Part shown: positions 8,852 through 61,571 of the stretch, one piece after another
How the letters are laid out: each line of letters starts with the position of its first letter
Numbering within the stretch: the stretch's first letter is position 1
From: an uncultured Planctomycetota bacterium
GTDB taxonomy: Bacteria; Planctomycetota; UBA11346
NCBI GenBank assembly: GCA_963818245.1
Contig: CAWFSD010000003.1
Coordinates: 99,860 to 163,859 of the forward strand
DNA length: 64,000 bases
Direction of reading: 5' to 3'
Position numbers and translations under genes: made by a program
Notes under the pieces: generated by a model
What the model was told of the DNA's origin: nothing
Seen by the model: only the letters and a program-made list of their open reading frames with translations
Database searches by the model: none

Positions 8852-8883
8852 TGCTCGGGGAGGGGGACGGATGGAACCGCCAG

Positions 8884-8993
8884 GACGCCAAGGCGCCAAG
8901 GGCCGGTGGTTCGAGGTGGAAGGCGCTGCTCATGACGCTCCTAGCGCACGTTCGCTCTGGCTGTCGAGCCTTGGCGCCTTGGCGCCTTGGCGG
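8884..8993. repeat. MITE-like element: arm gacgccaaggcgccaagg, about 65-bp core, inverted arm ccttggcgccttggcgccttggcgg (CGCCAAGG octamer units)
   Basis: Direct reading. Lies in the intergenic region upstream of the ECF sigma gene. Confidence 0.85.
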
Positions 8994-9031
8994 TTCTATC
9001 CTGCGGGTCCGATCACCCCGCGGTCAAGCGC

Positions 9032-10173: not shown

Positions 10174-10412
10174 ACCTGGACCCTGGACCGTGGACACCTG
10201 GACCCTAGACCCTAGACCCTAGACATAGGGACGAGGTGATCAGTAGAGCCTCGACGCGGAACAGGGCATCGAAGATCGCGAAAGTGGATGCATTCCATCG
10301 GCGAAGTTTCAGACAACGCCATAAAAAGCAGGCAGTCCGCCTAGGGTCTAGGGTCTAGGGTCTCAGGGTCTAGGGTCTCAGGGTCTAGGGTCCAGGGTCC
10401 AGGGTCCAAGAA
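10174..10412. repeat. composite element: (GACCCTA)n array, about 105-bp lower-GC core, inverted (TAGGGTC)n array
   Basis: Direct reading: ctggaccctagaccctagaccctaga...core...ctagggtctagggtctagggtctcagggtctagggtc. Lies between the C45 and SnoaL genes. Confidence 0.9.
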
Positions 10413-12039: not shown

Positions 12040-12302
12040 GGCGAGGCGCGAGGCGCGAGGGACGAGGCGCGAGGCGCGAGGGACGAGGCGCGAGGCACGA
12101 GGCGCGAGGCGCGAGGCGCGAGGCGCGAGGCACGAGGCACCGCGCTCGGGTGCCTGGAATGTTTATAGACCCAAGCGCGAGGAGCCAGCCTTGGGCCATT
12201 GTGCCCGACGATGTCGCTTCACGTGTTCGGCCTATCCGCGCATGAACCGGATATCTAGGGTCTGGGTCCAGGGTCCAGGGACTCGGGGTCCGGGTCCAGG
12301 GA
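12040..12302. repeat. hybrid element: (GCGAGGC)n array, about 110-bp core, (TAGGGTC)-like array
   Basis: cgaggcgcgaggcgcgagggacgaggcg... about 14 units, then tctagggtctgggtccagggtccaggg. Lies between astA and the sigma-factor gene. Confidence 0.85.
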
Positions 12303-17091: not shown

Positions 17092-17109
17092 GAGGGCGCT
17101 GCGCGCAGG

Positions 17110-17200
17110 CACAGGCGCGAGGCGCGAGGCGCGAGGCGCGACGGGCGAGTCACGAGTCACGACGCGCGAGGCACGAGACGCGACGCGCGAGGGACAGCCT
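17110..17200. repeat. (GCGAGGC)n-type heptamer array, degenerating
   Basis: gcgaggcgcgaggcgcgaggcgcgacgggcgagtcacgagtcacgacgcgcgaggcacgagacgcgacgcgcgaggg. Confidence 0.8.
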
Positions 17201-22084: not shown

Positions 22085-22309
22085 GGAAGGTGTCGCCGGT
22101 GTGGAGTTTAGACCGGGATCAGCTGCCGCACCACTGCTAATCCGCTCGCTGGGGTGTCTGCCGGTGCAACCTTCGCACCATCTTCATCGTCGGGAGATGG
22201 CCGAAAAACCGGATTGAAACACCGCGCGCGCAGCGGCGGATGGATTGCTACGCCCAAGGGGGGCGCGCCGACCCATTCCCAAGGCGTTCCGGGCCGGCAC
22301 GGTGGCGGC

Positions 22310-22741
22310 ATGCCCGACGTCACCATCCGCGTGCGCTCCGCCGCCGCTCCCGACCAGCTGGCCTGGCTGACCATGCGCGTGCGCCGGCGCGAGGACCACC
22401 ACATCCACTTCCAGGCCGAGGTCGCCACCGCCCTGGCCAAGGACGCGGTCAGCTTCCTCGCGCCGCTCACCCCGGCCCAGGCCCAGGTGGTGAAGTCCGA
22501 GATCACCGGCGGCATCCTGATGGCGCGCAAGCAGGCCGGCAAGGTCGGTTTCATCGCCGAACTGCTCTCGCTCGGCGGCAGCGTCGGCGACGAGCGCACG
22601 GTGTCCGCGCTGCCGTCGGTCGCCTTCGCGGTGGCGGCGACCCTGGCGGTGGTGCAGGGCTTGGGAGTGGAGGACCTGCGCACCGCGCCGCGCGGCGGGT
22701 TCCAGTGGAAGCTGGATGCGGTGGAGGTCGTGGAGGAATGA
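22310..22741 (+). CDS. hypothetical protein
   Basis: Internal ATG (MPDVTIRV) of ORF 22154..22741. Good GC3 codon bias. The antisense ORF is low-complexity. No recognisable family. Confidence 0.35.
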   Translation: MPDVTIRVRSAAAPDQLAWLTMRVRRREDHHIHFQAEVATALAKDAVSFLAPLTPAQAQVVKSEITGGILMARKQAGKVGFIAELLSLGGSVGDERTVSALPSVAFAVAATLAVVQGLGVEDLRTAPRGGFQWKLDAVEVVEE

Positions 22742-22770
22742 CCCTGGACCCCAGGTAGGTCAGGGGGTTT

Positions 22771-22923
22771 CTGCCGCAGGGACGCAGAGCTGCAGCGAGG
22801 GCCGCAGAGGGGAGGTGCTGGCGAGGCGGGAAGGTGACGTGACGGCTGCACCAGCGTCAGACCGCAGATCCCCTGCAGGCCGTCCTCCGCGGCCCTCGCT
22901 GCAGCTCTGCGTCTCTGCGGCAG
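22771..22923. repeat. MITE-like element with 40-bp terminal inverted repeats (ctgccgcagggacgcagagctgcagcgagggccgcagagg / cctccgcggccctcgctgcagctctgcgtctctgcggcag)
   Basis: 2 mismatches in 40 bp. 73-bp core. Lies between the hypothetical gene and ychJ. Confidence 0.85.
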
Positions 22924-22942
22924 GATCCTTCGGGATCCCTGC

Positions 22943-23470
22943 TCAGGCCCCGTGGCACTTCTTGAATTTCTTCCCGCTGCCGCAGTGGCAGGGGTCGTTG
23001 CGGCCGATGGTGGGCTCGTTCTTCACGAACGGCTTCTGGCCCGGGGTCTGGCCGTCGACGTAGTGCCAGCGGCCGTCGACGCGGCTGAACTCGCTGCGCT
23101 CGCGGTGCGCGTGGTCGGCGCCGTTCAGGTGGAAGCGCGCGATGAATTCGACCACGCCGGTCTGGTCGTCCACGCCGCCGGCCTCGGTGGCGACGACTTC
23201 CAGGCCCTGCCACTGCGACTTGGTCGCCCAGGCGACCGCGGCCTCGCGGTTGAACTCGCCGCGCCGCGACGGGTGGTCGGTGGCCGCGATGTAGTCGACC
23301 TGGTTGAGCACGTAGGCGCTGTAGCGCGAGCGCATCAGCGCCTCGGCGGTCGGCGCCGGCGAGGTGCCGCGCAGGTAGGGCGCGCAGCAGTCGGCGAAGG
23401 TGCGGCCGCTGGTGCACGCGCAGGGCGCGCCGCCCTCGAGGGTGATGGCGGGGGAGGTGCTGGTGGTCAT
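22943..23470 (-). CDS. ychJ: YchJ-family (UPF0225) protein with SEC-C metal-binding motifs
   Basis: N-terminal [13 protein letters not shown] and C-terminal [16 protein letters not shown]. Confidence 0.8.
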
Positions 23471-27280: not shown

Positions 27281-27552
27281 ACCTTGGACAGACCCTGGAC
27301 CCTGGACCCTGGGCCTGGGCCTGGGCCCTGGACCCTGGACCCTAGACCCTAGACCCTAGACCCTAGACCCTAGACCCTAGCCAGTCCGACCGGGTCGGAA
27401 GAGCGTCATCGCGAACGAGGGTCCGAATGCGTTCTTCGTGATGATTGAAAAGCCGCATGCGGTGATCCGGCCGACGACGCGCGCGGGCGACGCACCGGTA
27501 ACATGTCTAGGGTCTAGGGTCTAGGGTCTAGGGCCTCGCGCCTCGCGCCCCC
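27281..27552. repeat. composite element: (GACCCTR)n about 14 units, about 125-bp core, inverted (TCTAGGG)4 directly abutting (CCTCGCG)3
   Basis: Direct reading. Lies in the divergent region between the ABC-F gene and the nfu-like gene. Confidence 0.9.
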
Positions 27553-30357: not shown

Positions 30358-30510
30358 GGCGCGAGGCGCGAGGCGCGAGGACCTGATTCGAGGTCTAATA
30401 AGTGAAACCCAGAACGGGCACAGTGGACCGGGTCCCAGGACCTCGTGCCTCGTGCCTCGTGCCTCGTGCCTCGTGCCTTGTGCCTCGTGCCTCGCGCCTC
30501 GCGCCTCCCC
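30358..30510. repeat. composite element: (GCGAGGC)3, about 60-bp lower-GC core, inverted (GCCTCGY)9
   Basis: gcgaggcgcgaggcgcgagg ... cctcgtgcctcgtgcctcgtgcctcgtgccttgtgcctcgtgcctcgcgcctcgcgcctc. Lies between cimA and the brx-like gene. Confidence 0.9.
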
Positions 30511-31059: not shown

Positions 31060-31936
31060 ATGGCCGACCGCACCCTCGCCTACGCCGAGAACGCCCCCGG
31101 CGGCTTCTTCGTCGACAGCACGTGCATCGACTGCGACACCTGCCGGCAGGTCGCGCCGGCGTCCTTCGTGGCGGTCGACGGGCACTCGGCGGTGGGCGTC
31201 CAGCCGCGCAGCGAGGACGAGGCGCGGGCGGCGGCGCGCGCGGTGCTGTGCTGCCCGACCAATTCCATCGGCAGCGACCAGGCGGCGCTGGTGCGCGCGG
31301 CGAGCGCGGACTTCCCCGCTGCCGATCACCGGCGACGTCGCCTACTGCGGCTTCGCGGCCGCCTCCTCGTTCGGTGCGTCGAGCTACTTCATCCGCCACG
31401 CCGACGGGAACTGGCTGATCGACGCGCCGCGCTGGACGCCGCAGCTGGTCCAGGCCATCGCGCGCGCCGGCGGCCTGAGCGGGATCTTCCTCACCCACCG
31501 CGACGACGTCGCCGACGCGGCGCGCTACGCGCAGCGCTTCGGCGCGCGCCGCGTGATCCACGCGCGCGACGCCGACGCCATGCCCGGCGCCGAGCAGGTG
31601 CTGACCGGCGAGGGCGAAACGACGCTCGCCGCCGACCTGGTCGCCATCCCCACGCCCGGCCACACCGCCGGCCACTGCGTCGCACTGTGGCGCGGCACCC
31701 ACCTGTTCAGCGGCGACCACCTGTGGTGGAGCCGGCGCCTGGGCGCGCTGAACGCGTCGCGCGAGGTGTGCTGGCACTCGTGGACCGAGCAGACCGCGTC
31801 GGTGCGGCGGCTCGCCGACCTCGCCTGCACCTGGGTGCTGCCGGGGCACGGCGAGCGGCGGCGAGATGACCGTGGCGGACTACCGCGCCGGGATGCGCGC
31901 CCTGGTGGAGCGCATGGAGCGCGCCCCGCTCGAGTC
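31060..31936 (+). CDS. ferredoxin-domain / MBL-fold metallo-hydrolase fusion protein (apparent frameshifts near 31320 and near 31860)
   Basis: N-terminus CIDCDTCRQVAP...CPTNSI is a ferredoxin cluster motif. Then the MBL frame: THRDDVADAARYAQ, PTPGHTAGH, LPGHGE. The probable C-terminus EMTVADYRAGMRALVERMERAPLESWP* is in a third frame. Confidence 0.6.
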
Positions 31937-31943
31937 CTGGCCG

Positions 31944-32362
31944 TGACGTTGCGTTCCAAACTCGCCAGGCTGGGAGCGCAGGGCATCGCGGATCTGGAAG
32001 AGCAGCAGCTCCATGCGATCCAGAAGGCCTGGCTCCAGGCGTTCTGCCAAGAGGTGAAGGCGCGACGCGGGCGATGGATCCACAACGGCTCCATGTGGCA
32101 CGCCTTCAGTTTCGACTACTGCGCGTGCCTGAGAGGCTTAAAGGCCTTGGCCGCGTATGAGAGGGTGCAGGGCGGGCCGTGCTACGCCTTCAACGAGGAC
32201 ATGGACACCGGTTGCGGATTCACCGCCACGGCGGGGCCGCCGGACCTGACGTCATCGAAGGACGACTGGTACGTGTGCGCCCAGGACATGGGCTGGACCA
32301 TGGTCTTCACCCATGAGCAGCCGGAGCTCGGACCGTTCTTCGCGAAGAATCCCCGGCTCTAG
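31944..32362 (+). CDS. small hypothetical protein, lower GC than its surroundings
   Basis: In frame with the tail of ORF 30722..32362. Follows the MBL gene stop. TTG/GTG start near 31944. Cys-containing (FDYCACLRGL, GPCYAF, TGCGF). Confidence 0.35.
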
Positions 32363-33272: not shown

Positions 33273-34706
33273 ATGCCCACCGACCGCTACGACTCGCCCC
33301 TCTGCTCGCGCTACGCCTCCAAGGAGATGCAGCGGCTGTTCTCCGACGACGTCAAGTTCTCGACCTGGCGCAAGCTGTGGCTGGAGCTGGCCAAGGCGGA
33401 GCGGGACCTGGGCCTGCCGATCAGCGACGCGCAGGTCGCCGAGCTCGCGGCGCACCTCACGGACATCGACTACGCGATGGCCGCGGCGGAGGAGAAGAAG
33501 CGCCGCCACGACGTCATGGCGCACGTCCACACCTTCGGCCACGCGTGCCCGACCGCGGCGCCGATCATCCACCTCGGCGCGACCAGCTGCTACGTCACCG
33601 ACAACGCCGACCTGCTGGTGATGCGCGACGGCCTCGACCTGCTCGCGCTCAAGCTCGCGCGCGCCATGGACCGCCTCGCGCACTTCGCAGAGAAGCAGCG
33701 CGCGCTGCCCACGCTGGGCTTCACCCACTTCCAGGCCGCGCAGCTGACCACCGTGGGCAAGCGCGCCTGCCTGTGGCTGCAGGACCTGGCGATGGACCTG
33801 CGCAACCTCGAGCGCGCGCGCGCCGAGCTGCGCTTCCGCGGCGTCAAGGGCACCACCGGCACGCAGGCCTCGTTCCTGGCGCTGTTCCACGGCGACCACG
33901 AGAAGGTCGAGGAGCTCGACCGCCGCGTCACCGCCGCGTTCCAGTTCGGCAAGCCCTTCCTGGTCACCGGGCAGACCTACACGCGCAAGCAGGACACCGA
34001 GGTGCTCACGGTCCTCGCCGGCCTGGGCGCGAGCGCGCACAAGCTCGCCACCGACCTGCGCCTGCTCGCCCACCTCAAGGAGATCGAGGAGCCGATCGAG
34101 AAGGACCAGATCGGCTCCAGCGCGATGGCCTACAAGCGCAACCCGATGCGCGCCGAGCGCGTGTGCTCGCTGGCCCGCCACCTGATGACCCTGGTCGGCG
34201 ACGCCTACGCCACGCACAGCGTGCAGTGGATGGAGCGCACCCTGGACGACAGCGCGGTGCGCCGCATCAGCATCCCCGAGGCCTTCCTCGCCGCCGACGC
34301 GGTCCTGGGCATCCTGCAGAACGTCTTCGAGGGCCTCGACGTGCACGAGAAGGTCATCGCCCGGCGCATCGCCGAGGAGCTGCCCTTCATGGCCACCGAG
34401 AACCTGATCATGGCCCTGGTCGAGGCCGGCGGCGACCGCCAGGAGGCGCACGAGCGCATCCGCGTGCTCTCCCGCGAAGCCGCGGCCGAGGTCAAGGACC
34501 ACGGCCGCGACAACGACCTGATCGCGCGCGTGCGCGCCGACGCCTTCTTCGCCCCCATCCACGCGCAGCTGCCGGCCCTGCTCGACGCCAGCACCTTCGT
34601 CGGCCGCGCCCCGCAGCAGGTCGACCGCTTCCTCGCCGAGGAGATCCGCCCCGCCCTCGCCCCCTACGCCGGCCGCCTCGGCGGCACCAGCACGCTCAGC
34701 GTCTGA
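33273..34706 (+). CDS. purB: adenylosuccinate lyase
   Basis: [25 protein letters not shown]..., [26 protein letters not shown] (the fumarate-lyase signature). Confidence 0.9.
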
Positions 34707-34749
34707 GCGGGCGTAGGTGCCGGGGGCTGGTTCTGGATTCGAGGGGTTT

Positions 34750-35024
34750 CAGCCGCAGAGACGCAGAGTTGCGGAGAGGGCCGCAGAGAAGAATGAGGAC
34801 TGGGTGCGGCGACCCGAAGCGTCAAGGCTTTCGACCTTTCGCGGTTGGAAAGCGCTGTCCTCTGCGGCCCTCTCTGAAACTCCGCGTCTCGCGGCAAAGT
34901 CGCCGAACGACAGAGCCGGCGCTTGGCGGCGCCGGTCTCGATCGGCTGCTGCCGCATCGGTCACCCAGCTCCAGGGTCCGCCCTCTGCGGCCCTCTCTGG
35001 AACTCTGCGTCTCTGCGGCTATGG
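34750..35024. repeat. MITE-like element of the same CTCTGCGGCC-TIR family, with an extra internal arm copy near 34858-34896
   Basis: Left arm cagccgcagagacgcagagttgcggagagggccgcagag. Right arm ccctctgcggccctctctggaactctgcgtctctgcggct. Lies downstream of purB. Confidence 0.85.
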
Positions 35025-35040
35025 CTGTCCGATCGCGAGA

Positions 35041-43214: not shown

Positions 43215-43249
43215 GGGGGCGGGATGTTCGGGGTGCGCCGGCGCTGTGC

Positions 43250-43400
43250 TAGACCTTAGATTTGAGACCCTAGACCCTAGACCCTAGACCCTAGACCCTA
43301 GACCCTAGACCCTAGGAAACCGGCTGCGCCTCAGGAGTCGTGCAGCGTCGCGTGCGTTGGCCGCGAGGAGCCGGGCGGAGGGCTGTCGCCAGGGTCCAGG
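43250..43400. repeat. composite element: (GACCCTA)9, about 65-bp core, degenerate inverted (CAGGGTC)2
   Basis: gagaccctagaccctagaccctagaccctagaccctagaccctagaccctagg ... ccagggtccagggtctg. Lies between hrpB and aroG. Confidence 0.85.
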
Positions 43401-43472
43401 GTCTGCCCCGCAGGGCGCGCGGAACTCGCGCTTGGCACCCGCGAAATCCCCCGGATCGTCCCACCCACCCCC

Positions 43473-51158: not shown

Positions 51159-51200
51159 CCTAAAGGCCGTGGGCGCGGGTCCAGCGGCGCCTCCGTTGCA

Positions 51201-51400
51201 GACCCTGGATCCTAGACCCTAGACCCTAGACCCTAGACCCTAGACCCTAGATCGATGCCCAGGGTCTCGGGTCATTGAAAAGGAACAAACTGCGCCTTGG
51301 TCCGGTATCTAGGGTCTCGGGTCTAGGGTCTAGGGTCTACCGTCGATCTAGGGTCTCGGGTCTCGGGTCTCGCGGTCTGCTCCCAGGGTCCCCATTGCCC
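51201..51400. repeat. composite element: (CCTAGAC)7, about 58-bp core, inverted (TAGGGTC/TCGGGTC)n
   Basis: Direct reading. Lies between the small gene 50916..51158 and the HIT gene. Confidence 0.9.
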
Positions 51401-52152: not shown

Positions 52153-52180
52153 CCAGGATCACACCGGGGACCTTGATTTT

Positions 52181-52314
52181 AACCGCCAAGACGCCAAGGC
52201 GCCAAGGCTCGAGGGAGGGGGGTCGCGAAAAGTGCGGACGGGCGCCACGGGGGTGGGCCGCCGGCGGTCCCGCCCGGGGTCATGCCTTCCGTGGCGCCGT
52301 GGCGTCTTGGCGGT
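52181..52314. repeat. MITE-like element of the same family: 27-bp arm aaccgccaagacgccaaggcgccaagg, about 80-bp core, inverted arm ccgtggcgccgtggcgtcttggcggtt
   Basis: The arms are reverse complements with 2 mismatches. Lies between mazG-like and lpxL-like. Confidence 0.85.
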
Positions 52315-52339
52315 TGAAACCCTTGTTCGCAGCCAGCCG

Positions 52340-54580: not shown

Positions 54581-56008
54581 ATGGCCTCGACGCTGGTCAT
54601 CGGCGGCGGCATCAGCGGCCTGGCCACCGCCTTCCGCCTGCGCGCCGCGGCGCTCGCGCGCGGCGAGACGCCCGCCATCACCGTGCTCGAGGCCGGTGCG
54701 CGCTGGGGTGGCGTCATCCAGTCCAGCGTGCACGACGGCTGCGTGCTGGAGCACGGTCCCGACTCGCTCATCCGCACCAAGCCCGCTGGCCTGCGCCTGA
54801 TCGCCGACCTCGGCCTCGACGGGGAGGTGCAGGGCACCAGTCCCGAGGCGCGGCGCAGCCTGATCGCGCGTGGCGACCGCCTGCTGCCGGTGCCCGAGGG
54901 CCTCTACCTGCTCGCTCCGGGTCGGATGCTGCCCTTCCTGGCCTCGCCGCTGCTGAGCTGGCCGGGCAAGCTGCGCATGGCGCTCGACCTGCTGCTGCCG
55001 CGGCGCGCGCCGGACGCGCCCGAGGAATCGCTCGCCGCCTTCGTGCGCCGCCGCCTCGGCCGCGAGGCCCTGGCGCGCATCGCCCAGCCGCTGGTCGGCG
55101 GCATCTACACCGCCGATCCGGAACTGCTCAGCCTGCGCGCCACGATGCCGCAGTTCCTGGCCATGGAGCAGGAGCACCGCTCGCTGATCCTGGCGATGCG
55201 CGCGCGCAGCCGCGCGGCGGCGGGTGCGGAGCTCGCCGCCGCCAGCGGCCCGCGCTACGGCCTGTTCGTCACCCTGCGCGGCGGCCTGCAGCGCCTGACC
55301 GACGCGCTCGCCGCGCAGCTCGGCGGCCTCGATCTGCGCCTGGGCGCGCGCGCCACCGCGCTCGAGAGGCGCGCGCATGGCGGTTTCACCGCGACCCTCG
55401 CCGACGGCACCGCGCTGGCGGCGGACCGGGTGGTGATCGCAGGGCCGGCGCACCGCGCCGCGCCGCTGCTCGCGCCGTTCGCCACGGAGCTGGCCGCGGA
55501 GCTGGCCGCCATCCCCTACGCCGGCGTCGCGACCGTCAACCTCGCCTTCGCCCCGGAGCAGATCGCGCGCCTGCCGCGCGCCGCCGGCTTCGTGGTGCCC
55601 GCGGTCGAGGGCCGCACCATCATCGCCTGCACCTTCGCCGACCAGAAGTACGCCGGGCGCGTCCCCGCCGGCACCGTGCTGCTGCGCGCCTTCGCCGGCG
55701 GCGCGCTGCGCCCCGAGGTGCTCGCCCTCGATGACGCCACCCTGGTCGCGCGCCTGCTCGCCGACCTGCGCGACCTGCTCGGCGTGCGCGGCGAGCCGCG
55801 CTTCGCCACCGTGCACCGCTGGCCGCGGGCCATGGCCCAGTACGTCCTCGGCCACGAGGCGCGCGTGCGCGCCATCCGCGCGGCAGAAGCCGCCATCCCC
55901 GGCCTCGCCCTGGTCGGCAACGGCTACGAGGGCGTCGGCATCCCCGATCTGGCCGCGCAGGCCGAGGACGCCGCTGATAGACTAGGGACCCCAGACCGCA
56001 AATCTTAG
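54581..56008 (+). CDS. hemY: protoporphyrinogen/coproporphyrinogen oxidase, FAD-dependent (HemY family)
   Basis: VIGGGISGLATAF FAD-binding motif. It starts 8 nt after the hemE stop. Confidence 0.8.
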   Translation: MASTLVIGGGISGLATAFRLRAAALARGETPAITVLEAGARWGGVIQSSVHDGCVLEHGPDSLIRTKPAGLRLIADLGLDGEVQGTSPEARRSLIARGDRLLPVPEGLYLLAPGRMLPFLASPLLSWPGKLRMALDLLLPRRAPDAPEESLAAFVRRRLGREALARIAQPLVGGIYTADPELLSLRATMPQFLAMEQEHRSLILAMRARSRAAAGAELAAASGPRYGLFVTLRGGLQRLTDALAAQLGGLDLRLGARATALERRAHGGFTATLADGTALAADRVVIAGPAHRAAPLLAPFATELAAELAAIPYAGVATVNLAFAPEQIARLPRAAGFVVPAVEGRTIIACTFADQKYAGRVPAGTVLLRAFAGGALRPEVLALDDATLVARLLADLRDLLGVRGEPRFATVHRWPRAMAQYVLGHEARVRAIRAAEAAIPGLALVGNGYEGVGIPDLAAQAEDAADRLGTPDRKS

Positions 56009-56045
56009 ACCCTCCCCCTCGGGCCTACCCACGACTCCCAGCTTC

Positions 56046-56112
56046 ATCTCTCAATCGGCGAAATCTGCGGAATCTGCGGACTCTCCCCTCTTGAGAATCC
56101 GCCGATTCCGCA
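56046..56112. repeat. hairpin element with 19-bp perfect inverted repeat cggcgaaatctgcggaatc / gattccgcagatttcgccg around a 29-bp loop
   Basis: Direct reading. Lies just downstream of the hemY stop. Could act as a terminator or REP-like element. Confidence 0.8.
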
Positions 56113-56224
56113 GATTTCGCCGATTATGAATGAATGCGACCGCATGTCCGTCGGGGCCAAGGTGACGTGTGGGTAATGGGCGGACCTCGGGCCCTGGGAG
56201 CGGTCCAACGATTCCTGGATTTCA

Positions 56225-56343
56225 ACGCAGAGGCCGCAGAGGAGAAAGGTCCGATTCCGCCGCCGTCATGCGCGTCTCGGTCAACCCACTCCTTCCGGCC
56301 GTCCTCTGCGGCCTCCTGCCTTCACCCTCTGCGGCCTCTGCGG
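56225..56343. repeat. short element of the CTCTGCGGCC family (aacgcagaggccgcagaggag ... cctctgcggcctctgcgg)
   Basis: Direct reading. The 3' end shares a 35-bp near-identical block with 61450-61484 (cctctgcggcctctgcggYaagcSgtccgcagga). Confidence 0.75.
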
Positions 56344-56431
56344 TAAGCCGTCCGCAGGACATCCCTGTCCCATTCTAGACGACCTGCCCGCCGCGAGACC
56401 TGGATCTGGAAGCGCGCAGAGGTTCGACTCC

Positions 56432-56995
56432 TCAGATCTTCCCGACCAGACCCAGCCCCGGCTTCAGGGTCGCCGCGCCCGGCTTCCACCTGGCCGGGCA
56501 GACCTCGCCGGGGTTCTTGGCGATGTACTGCGCGGCCTGGATCTTGCGCAGCAGCTCGTCGGCGTTGCGGCCGATGCCGTTGTCGTGGATCTCGGCGATC
56601 TTGATGCGCCCGTCGGGCGCGACCACGAAGGTGCCGCGGTAGGCGATGCCCTCCTCCTCGATGTGCACGCCGAAGCCGCGCGTCAGCGTGCCGGTCGGAT
56701 CGGCGAGCAGCGGGTAGGTGACCTTCCGGATGGTCTCCGACGCGTCGTGCCACGCCTTGTGCACGAAGTGCGTGTCGGTGCTGACGCCGTAGACCTCGAC
56801 GCCCAGCTTCCGCAGCTCCGGGTGCTTCTCGGCGAGGTCCGCGAGCTCGGTCGGGCAGACGAAGGTGAAATCAGCCGGGTAGAAGAAGAATACCGCCCAT
56901 TTCCCGGCGATATCCGCGTTGCTGACGGTCTTGAAGGTGTCTTCGTGGTACGCCTGCACGGTGAAGGCGGGCACGGTGCTGTTGATGATGGGCAT
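56432..56995 (-). CDS. ahpC: 2-Cys peroxiredoxin (AhpC/Prx1 type)
   Basis: FFFYPADFTFVCPTEL peroxidatic-Cys motif and the resolving EVCPA motif. Confidence 0.9.
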   Translation of the reverse strand: MPIINSTVPAFTVQAYHEDTFKTVSNADIAGKWAVFFFYPADFTFVCPTELADLAEKHPELRKLGVEVYGVSTDTHFVHKAWHDASETIRKVTYPLLADPTGTLTRGFGVHIEEEGIAYRGTFVVAPDGRIKIAEIHDNGIGRNADELLRKIQAAQYIAKNPGEVCPARWKPGAATLKPGLGLVGKI

Positions 56996-57203
56996 GACGG
57001 GGTTCCTCGCGTCGCGGTGATGGTGGTTCGTCCCGGGGCGCATCGTGCAGCTCGGGAACGGCGCGCCCAATCGGTCCTGACGATCGACGCGATAGAGCAC
57101 GTCGATGGTGACGCTCGCGCGTTCCTCGCACGCGGCGCAGCGAAACCTCTGGCGGTTCCGCCGCGTGTGCGTCTACTGCCGCCTCACCCACACAAGGACA
57201 TGC

Positions 57204-57404
57204 ATGCCCTCCAGCATCGCACTCAGCAAGAAGATCGCTTCCCTCAAGGCCAAGGCCGCCGACACCCGCGGCAAGATCGCGTCCCTCAAGCCCATGCTCG
57301 CCGCCGCCAAGGCCGCCGACAAGGTCAAGAAGGCCGCCGCCAAGCTCAAGGGGAAGGGCAAGAAGATCGTGAAGAAGGCCAAGAAGGTCATCAAGAAGAA
57401 GTGA
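57204..57404 (+). CDS. histone H1-like (Hc1/AlgP-type) basic DNA-binding protein
   Basis: 66 aa, Lys/Ala repeats KAKAADTRGKIASLK...KVKKAAAKLKGKGKKIVKKAKKVIKKK. Locally lower GC. Confidence 0.55.
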   Translation: MPSSIALSKKIASLKAKAADTRGKIASLKPMLAAAKAADKVKKAAAKLKGKGKKIVKKAKKVIKKK

Positions 57405-57803
57405 CGCGGCGCGCCGGCCGCGCCCACCGGGACGCGGCCGTCGCCGATGCGGAGCCCATGCTGCCCTCGCGGTGGCATGGGCTTTTCCGTTCCTGGGGGG
57501 ATGTGACCAGCTCCTCAGCGCACGAGCGCGGGCACCGGCTCGCGTCCGGCACCGACAGGTGCGGACTTGCCGGCGGCGTGGCGGCGCTACGGTCTCGCCC
57601 ATGCTCCGCCCCACCAGCCCTGCACGCGCCGCCTTCGCCGGCCAGCCCCCGCTCTGGTGGCGCACGCCTACGCATCCGACCTGAGCGCGCGTCCTTCCTG
57701 TCACTTCCGACGACGGCCCGCTCATCCGAGCGGGCCGTTCACGTTGGCCCGGGCGTCGTCCGGGCGTCCCGGGCCCTGTCCCATCCGGACCCGAGGACTT
57801 CCC

Positions 57804-61449: not shown

Positions 61450-61484
61450 GGAGAGCGGACCGGGTCCCTCTGCGGCCTCTGCGG
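61450..61484. repeat. solo copy of the cctctgcggcctctgcggcaagcggtccgcagga hairpin-containing block
   Basis: Near-identical to 56318-56352. Contains the stem ctgcgg/ccgcag. Confidence 0.75.
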
Positions 61485-61571
61485 CAAGCGGTCCGCAGGA
61501 AGCCCTGGTCCACCTTCCGGACGCGCTACGAGGTGCCCAGTCCGGGACCGCGGTGGGGTCGTTAAACGCAG

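Follow-up and report, generated by a model that had tools for sequence, protein, structure and literature searches.

Foldback hairpins with heptamer-array arms in a Planctomycetota contig, and arms of the same design around genes of the GxxExxY nuclease-fold family

The foldback (FB) transposons of Drosophila and other eukaryotes have long inverted arms made of short tandem subrepeats around a loop that is heterogeneous or absent, with genes in some copies; they are kilobases long and make target duplications. In bacteria, the Coxiella 23S rRNA intervening sequence (IVS) consists of a 28-bp terminal stem and a small open reading frame (ORF), that of S23p, with tandem heptamers (GACAGAT) before its start codon; RNase III cuts at the first repeat, and a mobile origin of the IVS, with the ORF serving mobility, has long been suspected (PMC4990558). 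Heptamers also occur as dispersed arrays, GGGNATC in Xanthomonas and Nostoc (PMC4692102) and TAACTGA in Beggiatoaceae and cyanobacteria (PMC4679880). Here we describe repeats in a 64,000-nt stretch of an uncultured Planctomycetota bacterium of the UBA11346 lineage (assembly GCA_963818245.1, contig CAWFSD010000003.1, positions 99,860 to 163,859), the whole of which we call the window. Four sites in it carry arms of CGCAGAG heptamers, and in our judgement these sites are probably gene-less foldback members of a repeat family whose gene-bearing cassettes encode GxxExxY, a PD-(D/E)XK nuclease-fold protein of ~125 amino acids (PF13366, TIGR04256). In at least five phyla besides Planctomycetota, GxxExxY genes stand between arms of the same design, and the gene-less copies far outnumber the genes.

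In an arm, three or four CGCAGAG heptamers follow each other at 8–10-nt spacing, with linkers of 1–3 nt and the layout GC-CGCAGAG-A-CGCAGAG-[N7]-GGC-CGCAGAG-G, such that units start at arm positions 0, 8, 18 and 28, about one helical turn from each other. Nearly all arms show sequence conservation over their outer 16 nt and inner 13 nt; the N7 segment is genome-specific and, in one metagenome-assembled genome (MAG), takes the form of a fourth unit. On its own, an arm is a purine-rich direct array without self-complementarity, and the left and right arms within one element are 93% identical over their full length. With at least three heptamer-core units per arm, spaced 8–11 nt and inverted around a loop, the family has the make-up by which we define foldbacks associated with GxxExxY.

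In its strict form, element 1 (22773–22921) comprises two 38-nt arms, GCCGCAGAGACGCAGAG-N7-GAGGGCCGCAGAGG, and a 73-nt core. The left arm (22773–22810, forward strand) reads GCCGCAGGGACGCAGAG-CTGCAGC-GAGGGCCGCAGAGG and contains three CGCAGAG-type units, with the inverted repeat reaching outward to 22766; the loop, or cargo, occupies 22811–22883 and is similar only to the orthologous copy in a relative, locus L034; and the right arm (22884–22921) lies on the reverse strand. The consensus for the arms of this element is GCCGCAG(G/A)GACGCAGAG-CTGCAGC-GAGGGCCGC(A/G)GAGG. Near-perfect terminal inverted repeats (TIRs) around a 73-bp core had been reported for 22771–22923 in a preliminary description of the window, and a repeat finder agrees, returning 45-nt arms (22766–22810 and 22884–22928) that are 91% complementary and 73 nt apart. 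As RNA the element is predicted to form one hairpin (-115.8 kcal/mol, z = -9.6), its stem being ~38 bp long and followed by no U-tract. Its neighbours are convergent, a gene at 22154–22741 on the forward strand and a YchJ/SEC-C gene at 22943–23470 on the reverse strand. Directly outside the right arm, at 22923–22938, stands a perfect GGATCC-TTCG-GGATCC hairpin with a UUCG tetraloop, partly conserved in L034, which is possibly the YchJ gene's own 3' hairpin.

Element 2 has a left arm at 34752–34789 (forward) and a right arm at 34982–35019 (reverse), with a degenerate right-type arm between them at 34855–34896 (reverse) that is 74% identical to the arm at 22880–22921. The same arms plus an internal third copy had been described at 34750–35024, correctly, but the reading of this site as a nested copy goes further than the data: the extra arm makes it one of several multi-arm arrangements in the family (also seen in L024, L028 and L007), with no demonstrated nested insertion. 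Element 3 (56225–56343), between hemY and ahpC, is a short version, with two units in its left arm (56225–56242, forward; ACGCAGAGGCCGCAGAGG) and three on the right (56303–56343, reverse; CCTCTGCGGCC ... CCCTCTGCGGCCTCTGCGG), followed at 56344–56359 by TAAGCCGT-CCGCAGGA. The fourth site is a solo two-unit right arm at 61466–61500 (reverse), consisting of CCCTCTGCGGCCTCTGCGG (61466–61484) plus CAAGCGGT-CCGCAGGA, and it is absent from the orthologous spacer of locus L057. The last two sites do have a 35-nt block in common, as had been noted (56326–56360 and 61466–61500, 33 of 35 positions identical), and it occurs in none of the 84 other loci compared. Its proposed structure as an RNA hairpin, ctgcgg-N8-ccgcag, did not hold up, however, since structure prediction finds it no more stable than shuffles (z = -0.3), and a better reading is that of a short right arm with the first unit of a left arm adjoining it. 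The hairpin at 56046–56112, rightly set apart from these sites, is strong (-44 to -50 kcal/mol, z about -8); its arms are tandem AATCTGCGG units of reverse polarity (CTGCGG ... CCGCAG), and it is probably a related but distinct arm type.

Across the window CTCTGCGGCC occurs 8 times against 0.9 expected, and none of 100 shuffles reaches 8. Three of the four element sites lie between convergent genes and all copies lie between protein-coding genes; an Rfam scan of the whole window at the gathering threshold found no rRNA or other family. Over-representation of the kind seen for DNA uptake sequences was considered and rejected, as CGCAGAG outside the elements is found only as scattered singles (9 of 27 occurrences).

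The arms are far from confined to this contig. A scan for the exact pattern, made over one genome per species, returned 48 exact arm matches in 35 loci, all in five Planctomycetota MAGs that do not include the window's own genome, and a metagenome scan added 18 further loci from microbial-mat samples, which bears out the earlier idea of a dispersed family with real TIRs at many sites and in many genomes and is the opposite of the outcome named beforehand as its refutation, arms that recur nowhere else. The 53 loci and the window together hold 46 paired elements, each of them an arm, a loop and a reverse-complemented arm, with loops of 19–487 nt and total sizes of 91–559 nt; solo arms and multi-arm clusters occur too. 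By crude gene calls, 26 elements could be classed by context: the neighbours are tandem genes for 15, convergent genes for 10 and divergent genes for 1, and 25 of the 26 adjoin at least one gene 3' end. When all loops were compared with each other by blastn, similarity appeared only between orthologous copies, those with the same flanks; the ~30 independent copies have only their arms in common and no internal sequence. No target-site duplication was found in 46 junctions or at the one filled/empty pair described below, boundaries being known to ~8 nt. Three other known arrangements were tried and set aside: an invertible segment, as the loop is never inverted relative to its flanks among orthologous copies; a CRISPR-like interpretation of the arms that recur every 82 nt in L024, which are a tandem duplication of arm plus flank with identical 'spacers'; and an integron attC site or gene cassette, as the arms are without RYYYAAC / GTTRRRY cores and the copies are scattered singly among housekeeping genes.

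Copies of the element are gained or lost between close relatives. Element 1 is kept at the same site in L034 (MGR_bin416), which is syntenic with the window at 89–93% identity, but element 2 is absent from L054 (GCA_038213805.1, ~89% identical), in which the spacer between purB and the Gfo/Idh/MocA gene is 49 nt long. That spacer reads GGATTCGAG-A-GTCCG, compared with GGATTCGAG-gggtttca[arm ... arm]tatggct-GTCCG in the window, a clean difference of ~283 nt (about 34744–35026). L054 and L057, which together cover 26.8 kb of that assembly, are free of arms. In L058, a metagenome relative 95–97% identical to the window, the hemY–ahpC spacer is wholly different, with a (GACCCTA)n array and other palindromes in place of the window's hairpin and element. 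The ahpC segment (window 55977–57495) is inverted in L057 and followed by ahpF, where the window has an EamA-like gene. In the same set of relatives, a region of ~430 nt with a small ORF in the window (31925–32356) corresponds to ~120 nt of unrelated sequence in L054. One of the genes beside element 2 may be mentioned here in its own right: purB (33273–34703) encodes an adenylosuccinate lyase that is ~70% identical to vertebrate ADSL over 97–99% of its length, unusually close for a bacterium–animal pair.

The gene-bearing relatives of these elements lie between sucB and lpd, where seven loci (L024, L026, L013, L042, L051, L053 and L061) have a GxxExxY ORF between their arms. The loop of L024 and L026 consists of an ORF of 128–132 amino acids which starts 6–20 nt after the left arm and stops 5 nt before the right one, and which matches PF13366 at 4e-42 and TIGR04256 at 4e-42; the inner end of the left arm, GAGG, could serve as the ribosome-binding site of the enclosed ORF. 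The L026 arms, in MGR_bin416, whose alignable DNA is ~90–93% identical to that of the window, match the arm of the window's element 1 at 36 of 38 positions. L024 and L026 share ~90% of their flanking DNA and 62% of the protein, and each has the arm variant of its own genome. In L013 the gene is frameshifted and the arm is a 33-nt variant. The longest stretch between paired arms is 487 nt, and GxxExxY is the only recognised gene enclosed by any. The preliminary description had looked to a transposase with matching TIRs: a gene-bearing relative with matching arms does exist, but its product is a 125-amino-acid GxxExxY protein and no known transposase.

Does this association extend beyond one clade? 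Thirteen independent GxxExxY loci outside it were picked by protein similarity regardless of their flanks, and nine of these have inverted arrays on their two sides, the units being C[A/G]C[A/G]GAG-like or similar. For eight, the flanking inverted repeats score 18–42.5 against shuffle maxima of at most 14.5, and the ninth, the contig L085, has a flanking inverted repeat of ~45 nt that was found by eye; among control genes from the same loci, 0 of 64 score above 11.5. The arms are TTCACCACAGAGGACGCAGAGGACACGGAG in Bacteroides finegoldii (L062), AACACAGAG... in Bernardetia (L063), TTCACGCGAAGGCGCGAGGACGCGA in Sphingomonas (L064), where the insertion is between fabD and fabG, TTGAACCGCGGAGGCGCGGAGGACGCGGAG in Deferrisoma (L060) and TGAACCACAGAGATCACAGAGATCACAGAG in an Anaerolineae MAG (L076), between purB and purC; in a further MAG (L059) an arm stands before rpsM. 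Gemmatirosa has two such loci, locus b (L068) with an almost planctomycete arm, AACCGCAGAGGACGCAGAGGGCCGCAGAGGA, and locus a (L066) with 11-nt units, GGACTGAAGAA, and the arm in L085 is TTGAACCGCCAAGACGCCAAG.... Most bracketing arms have the outer end (TT)GAACC, which recurs across phyla, as do the C[A/G]C[A/G]GAG-type units. In every locus whose flanking genes were called or annotated, the GxxExxY gene points the same way as the genes on either side and lies 30–60 nt from each. Upstream of the purB-GxxExxY-purC insertion in L076 there is a second small ORF between purL and purB (154–525; 123 amino acids, no Pfam match). This ORF is a candidate for another cassette, and its ends showed no obvious arms.

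Gemmatirosa shows the imbalance between hairpins and genes, with at least 78 hairpins that lack a gene and few GxxExxY genes: each of two 1-Mb replicons has at least 39 matches to the hairpin, and no other plasmid of the collection has any. Within 200 kb there are 17 arms, mostly in hairpins with loops of 16–145 nt, and 2 GxxExxY genes. Each of these genes lies between a pair of complete hairpins belonging to its own arm family, gene-less copies of both families are found as well, and arm polarity differs from that elsewhere.

As for the protein, 12 diverse GxxExxY members all have D71, E81 and K83, and an AlphaFold model has a predicted local distance difference test score (pLDDT) of 91. When that model was compared with the PDB by Foldseek, only weak matches to restriction-endonuclease-like, lambda-exonuclease and Cas4 folds were returned, all with E ≥4.5e-3; they support the fold and not any specific activity. 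A search of PDB sequences with the GxxExxY profile found no solved relative, and a scan of viral contigs for relatives confirmed none. In a survey of the PD-(D/E)XK superfamily, PF13366 is listed with the function 'Unknown' and with 'multiple transfers' (PMC3424549). Two database proteins, P0256 and P0289, carry N- or C-terminal extensions (MNRQDAKFAEEEE... and ...FSAPSAPPRFKRF; NRQDAK... and ...FSAPSAPPRF) that are translated arms, and gene callers have evidently read into the repeats.

How might such elements work? The GxxExxY protein may recognise the arrays of units, or a hairpin or cruciform formed by them, and might then drive spread or homogenisation of arms in trans, as the RAYT (a tyrosine transposase associated with REPs, repetitive extragenic palindromic sequences) does for REPINs, the hairpins formed by paired REPs. 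That GxxExxY acts on the arms in this way is a tentative suggestion drawn from our comparisons, somewhat less probable than its opposite. On the RNA level, a transcribed perfect stem of 36–45 bp would be a substrate for RNase III, which would make the element an insert that removes itself from the transcript, like the 23S rRNA IVS. Such removal would explain why the elements are tolerated inside operons and at gene 3' ends, and we regard the chances that transcribed stems are cut by RNase III, rendering insertions harmless in these places, as about even on the present analysis. Any REP-like, terminator or mRNA-stabiliser effect on neighbouring genes, as proposed earlier, is possible as a side effect and would then be a by-product.

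Several observations weigh against a family of foldbacks served by GxxExxY. The window itself has no GxxExxY gene anywhere in its 64 kb, and the Planctomycetota clade offers a single independent gene-bearing site, sucB–lpd. Four of the 13 outside loci (Persicobacter, Prevotella, Fusobacteria and, with at best a marginal one, Treponema) are without a significant flanking repeat, and the arrangement varies by taxon, with the gene inside the arms in most and between two complete hairpins in Gemmatirosa. Profile searches with filters off found no trace of GxxExxY genes inside the gene-less loops. Even copies from one finished replicon have loops that bear no relation to each other, which models of whole-element copy-and-paste fail to account for. 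N7 pairing between arms of the same element is only weakly above background (0.735 versus 0.693, p = 0.014), and the stem is therefore not strictly maintained over its whole length. For the change at purB–Gfo, the more distant relatives L055 and L056 lack synteny and give no means of telling insertion from deletion, and any cutting, binding or moving of arms by GxxExxY is something that we infer. Strong arm-to-arm covariation in N7 was also considered as a sign of conserved structure, and was dropped, the signal being too weak to be usable as evidence.

Of the alternatives, two survive best, and both strike us as unlikely. In the first, the elements are REPs or REPINs moved by a RAYT, an HUH Y1 transposase encoded elsewhere, and the link to GxxExxY is mere co-location in permissive intergenic sites. 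The dispersed, intergenic placement with its bias to gene 3' ends would fit, as would the inverted pairs, solo copies and mixed-orientation clusters, which resemble bacterial interspersed mosaic elements. In the JANPLC and JACDEI lineages, moreover, GTAG stands directly outside many arms (cggTAG|CCGCAG), and GTAG tags are a REP hallmark, with GTAG REPs reported in Planctomycetes (PMC3733652). However, in the window the same position is taken by CAG, CTG or TAG, a single arm is no palindrome but a purine-rich direct array, and spacers here are unique per locus where each REPIN family conserves its own. No Y1 transposase came to notice in the loci, though no scan aimed at one was made, and the bracketing of GxxExxY across phyla (9 of 13 loci versus 0 of 64 controls) is too specific for co-location.

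The second, about as improbable, is that only whole cassettes move and that gene-less elements are remnants of cassettes with GxxExxY or another small ORF, internal deletion leaving the hairpins behind. GxxExxY is indeed frameshifted in situ in L013 and L068, and, given that identity within the family plateaus at 60–68%, diverse parent genes would yield unique loops. Against this, the filter-off profile search met no GxxExxY fragment in any gene-less loop, hairpins are more than ten times as many as genes, and the Gemmatirosa hairpins, with near-identical arms and loops of 16–27 nt, look like recent spread of hairpins rather than slow decay.

A lesser chance still attaches to the idea that the hairpins are not mobile at all, but are bidirectional terminators, mRNA 3' stabilisers or arrays of nucleoid-protein sites, selected by the host at gene ends. 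The very stable stem, the unit spacing of 8–10 nt (roughly one helical turn), the gene 3' end beside 25 of 26 elements and the retention of element 1 at the orthologous L034 site are all what it would predict; yet elements are absent from the orthologous spacers of the ~89%-identical relative (L054, L057), other repeats take their place in the 95–97%-identical one, no U-tract follows the stem, and the same arm design accompanies, in one phylum after another, a gene that has spread horizontally. Least probable of all are classical miniature inverted-repeat transposable elements (MITEs), deletion derivatives of a DDE-type insertion sequence with 40-bp TIRs that move by cut-and-paste: the TIRs, small size, many copies and presence or absence between relatives would suit, as would arm arrays comparable to the subterminal repeats that Tn7 and Mu use as transposase binding sites, but ~30 independent copies of 91–559 nt without shared internal sequence, direct target duplications missing from every copy and from the filled/empty pair, and no arm pair enclosing more than 487 nt or any recognised gene other than GxxExxY, no known transposase, do not. 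The earlier label of small nonautonomous elements is apt in that the window's copies are gene-less, and fails in so far as it meant classical MITEs.

The foldback family linked to GxxExxY, which we still prefer to these alternatives, has other repeats for company in the window. Foldbacks of CGCCAAG units lie at 8870–9000 (GGAACCGCCAGGACGCCAAGGCGCCAAGG ... CCTTGGCGCCTTGGCGCCTTGGCGGTTC; z = -7.05) and 52178–52318 (TTAACCGCCAAGACGCCAAGGCGCCAAGG ... GGCGTCTTGGCGGTTGAA; z = -5.76); both have the design of the present family and the outer end (G/T)AACC, and the CGCCAAG arm type, TTGAACCGCCAAGACGCCAAG..., is the one that flanks the GxxExxY gene in L085. Inverted pairs of heptamer arrays, (GACCCTA)n ... 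(TAGGGTC)n, are found at 10175–10406, 27291–27533, 43249–43420 and 51200–51378. Their G-rich strand has the GGGNNNN form discussed for G-quadruplex-forming repeats (PMC4692102), and, since the L054 array orthologous to the one at 43.2 kb has partly different units (GACGCGA), array units turn over in place. Arrays of (GCGAGGC)n occur at 12041–12138, 17101–17192 and 30358–30380 / 30441–30507, the pair at 30.4 kb being inverted, and no (G)AACC outer end was seen at any of them. With ~9 further sites of period-7 arrays and the two CGCCAAG foldbacks, the earlier count of at least 14 small elements in the window is plausible. A palindromic family of another kind, GAGCCCTGTA(R)GGGCG ... CGCCC(Y)TACAGGGCTC with flanks CCCAGGGC-N4-GCCCTGGG, was met in relatives, inside an element loop in L021 (1990–2190) and in the hemY–ahpC spacer of L058 (1670–1830).

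These results tie an abundant class of repeats, a hairpin kind that is widespread but undescribed, to a widespread protein family of which no more than three papers in the literature we searched make mention. If the link is functional, it would be a second, mechanistically independent relationship of the REPIN–RAYT type, would give a testable origin for the ORF-bearing intervening sequences of rRNA, and would explain small 'hypothetical' genes within the fabD-fabG, sucB-lpd, purB-purC and rpsM operons. It is tempting to go further and to propose, as a conjecture that we hold with less conviction than the action of GxxExxY on its arms, that GxxExxY proteins are the enzymes of an unrecognised class of prokaryotic foldbacks in at least six phyla, in which a minimal nuclease would act on heptamer arrays or cruciforms, hairpins would spread in RAYT-like fashion and the stem could be removed from RNA by RNase III, the same logic applying to the ORF-bearing 23S IVS and to many intergenic heptamer arrays. 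On the practical side, perfect stems of 36–45 bp will break assemblies and mislead ORF callers, and the rapid turnover of the elements makes them candidate strain markers.

How, then, do the elements stand beside what has been described before? Like bacterial MITEs such as Correia/NEMIS and RUP, they are small, intergenic and numerous, with TIRs, but MITEs share internal sequence and carry target duplications and the present copies do neither. With dispersed heptamer arrays they share tandem 7-nt units, from two to dozens, an intergenic location and relative scarcity between divergent genes; those arrays, however, have been described as direct ones with proposed G-quadruplex or translational roles, not as inverted pairs linked to a nuclease. 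The FB elements of Drosophila are similar in their arms of subrepeats and heterogeneous loops, with no homology implied. The likeness to REPIN–RAYT systems goes further, as there, too, many short gene-less hairpins of inverted repeats are found at gene 3' ends, one or a few small enzyme genes stand between inverted copies of the same repeats, every gene comes with a repeat family of its own (as in Gemmatirosa) and the repeat variants are lineage-specific. The enzyme, though, is of the PD-(D/E)XK and not the HUH Y1 type, the arm is a direct heptamer array instead of an imperfect palindrome of 20–40 nt, and the spacer between arms is unconserved between copies. The nearest described system remains the 23S rRNA IVS of Coxiella burnetii and Leptospira, with its S23p four-helix bundle. 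The present elements differ from it in lying between protein-coding genes and not in rRNA helices 25 or 45, in enclosing a PD-(D/E)XK GxxExxY gene in place of S23p, and in that their gene-less copies form a high-copy dispersed family. In both, terminal inverted repeats form a long stem around an ORF of ~120 amino acids or around none; in both (for the IVS, in Coxiella) the stem region is made of tandem heptamers; and the means by which the host RNA survives insertion of an IVS, an RNase III cut in the stem, is the one predicted for the elements described here.

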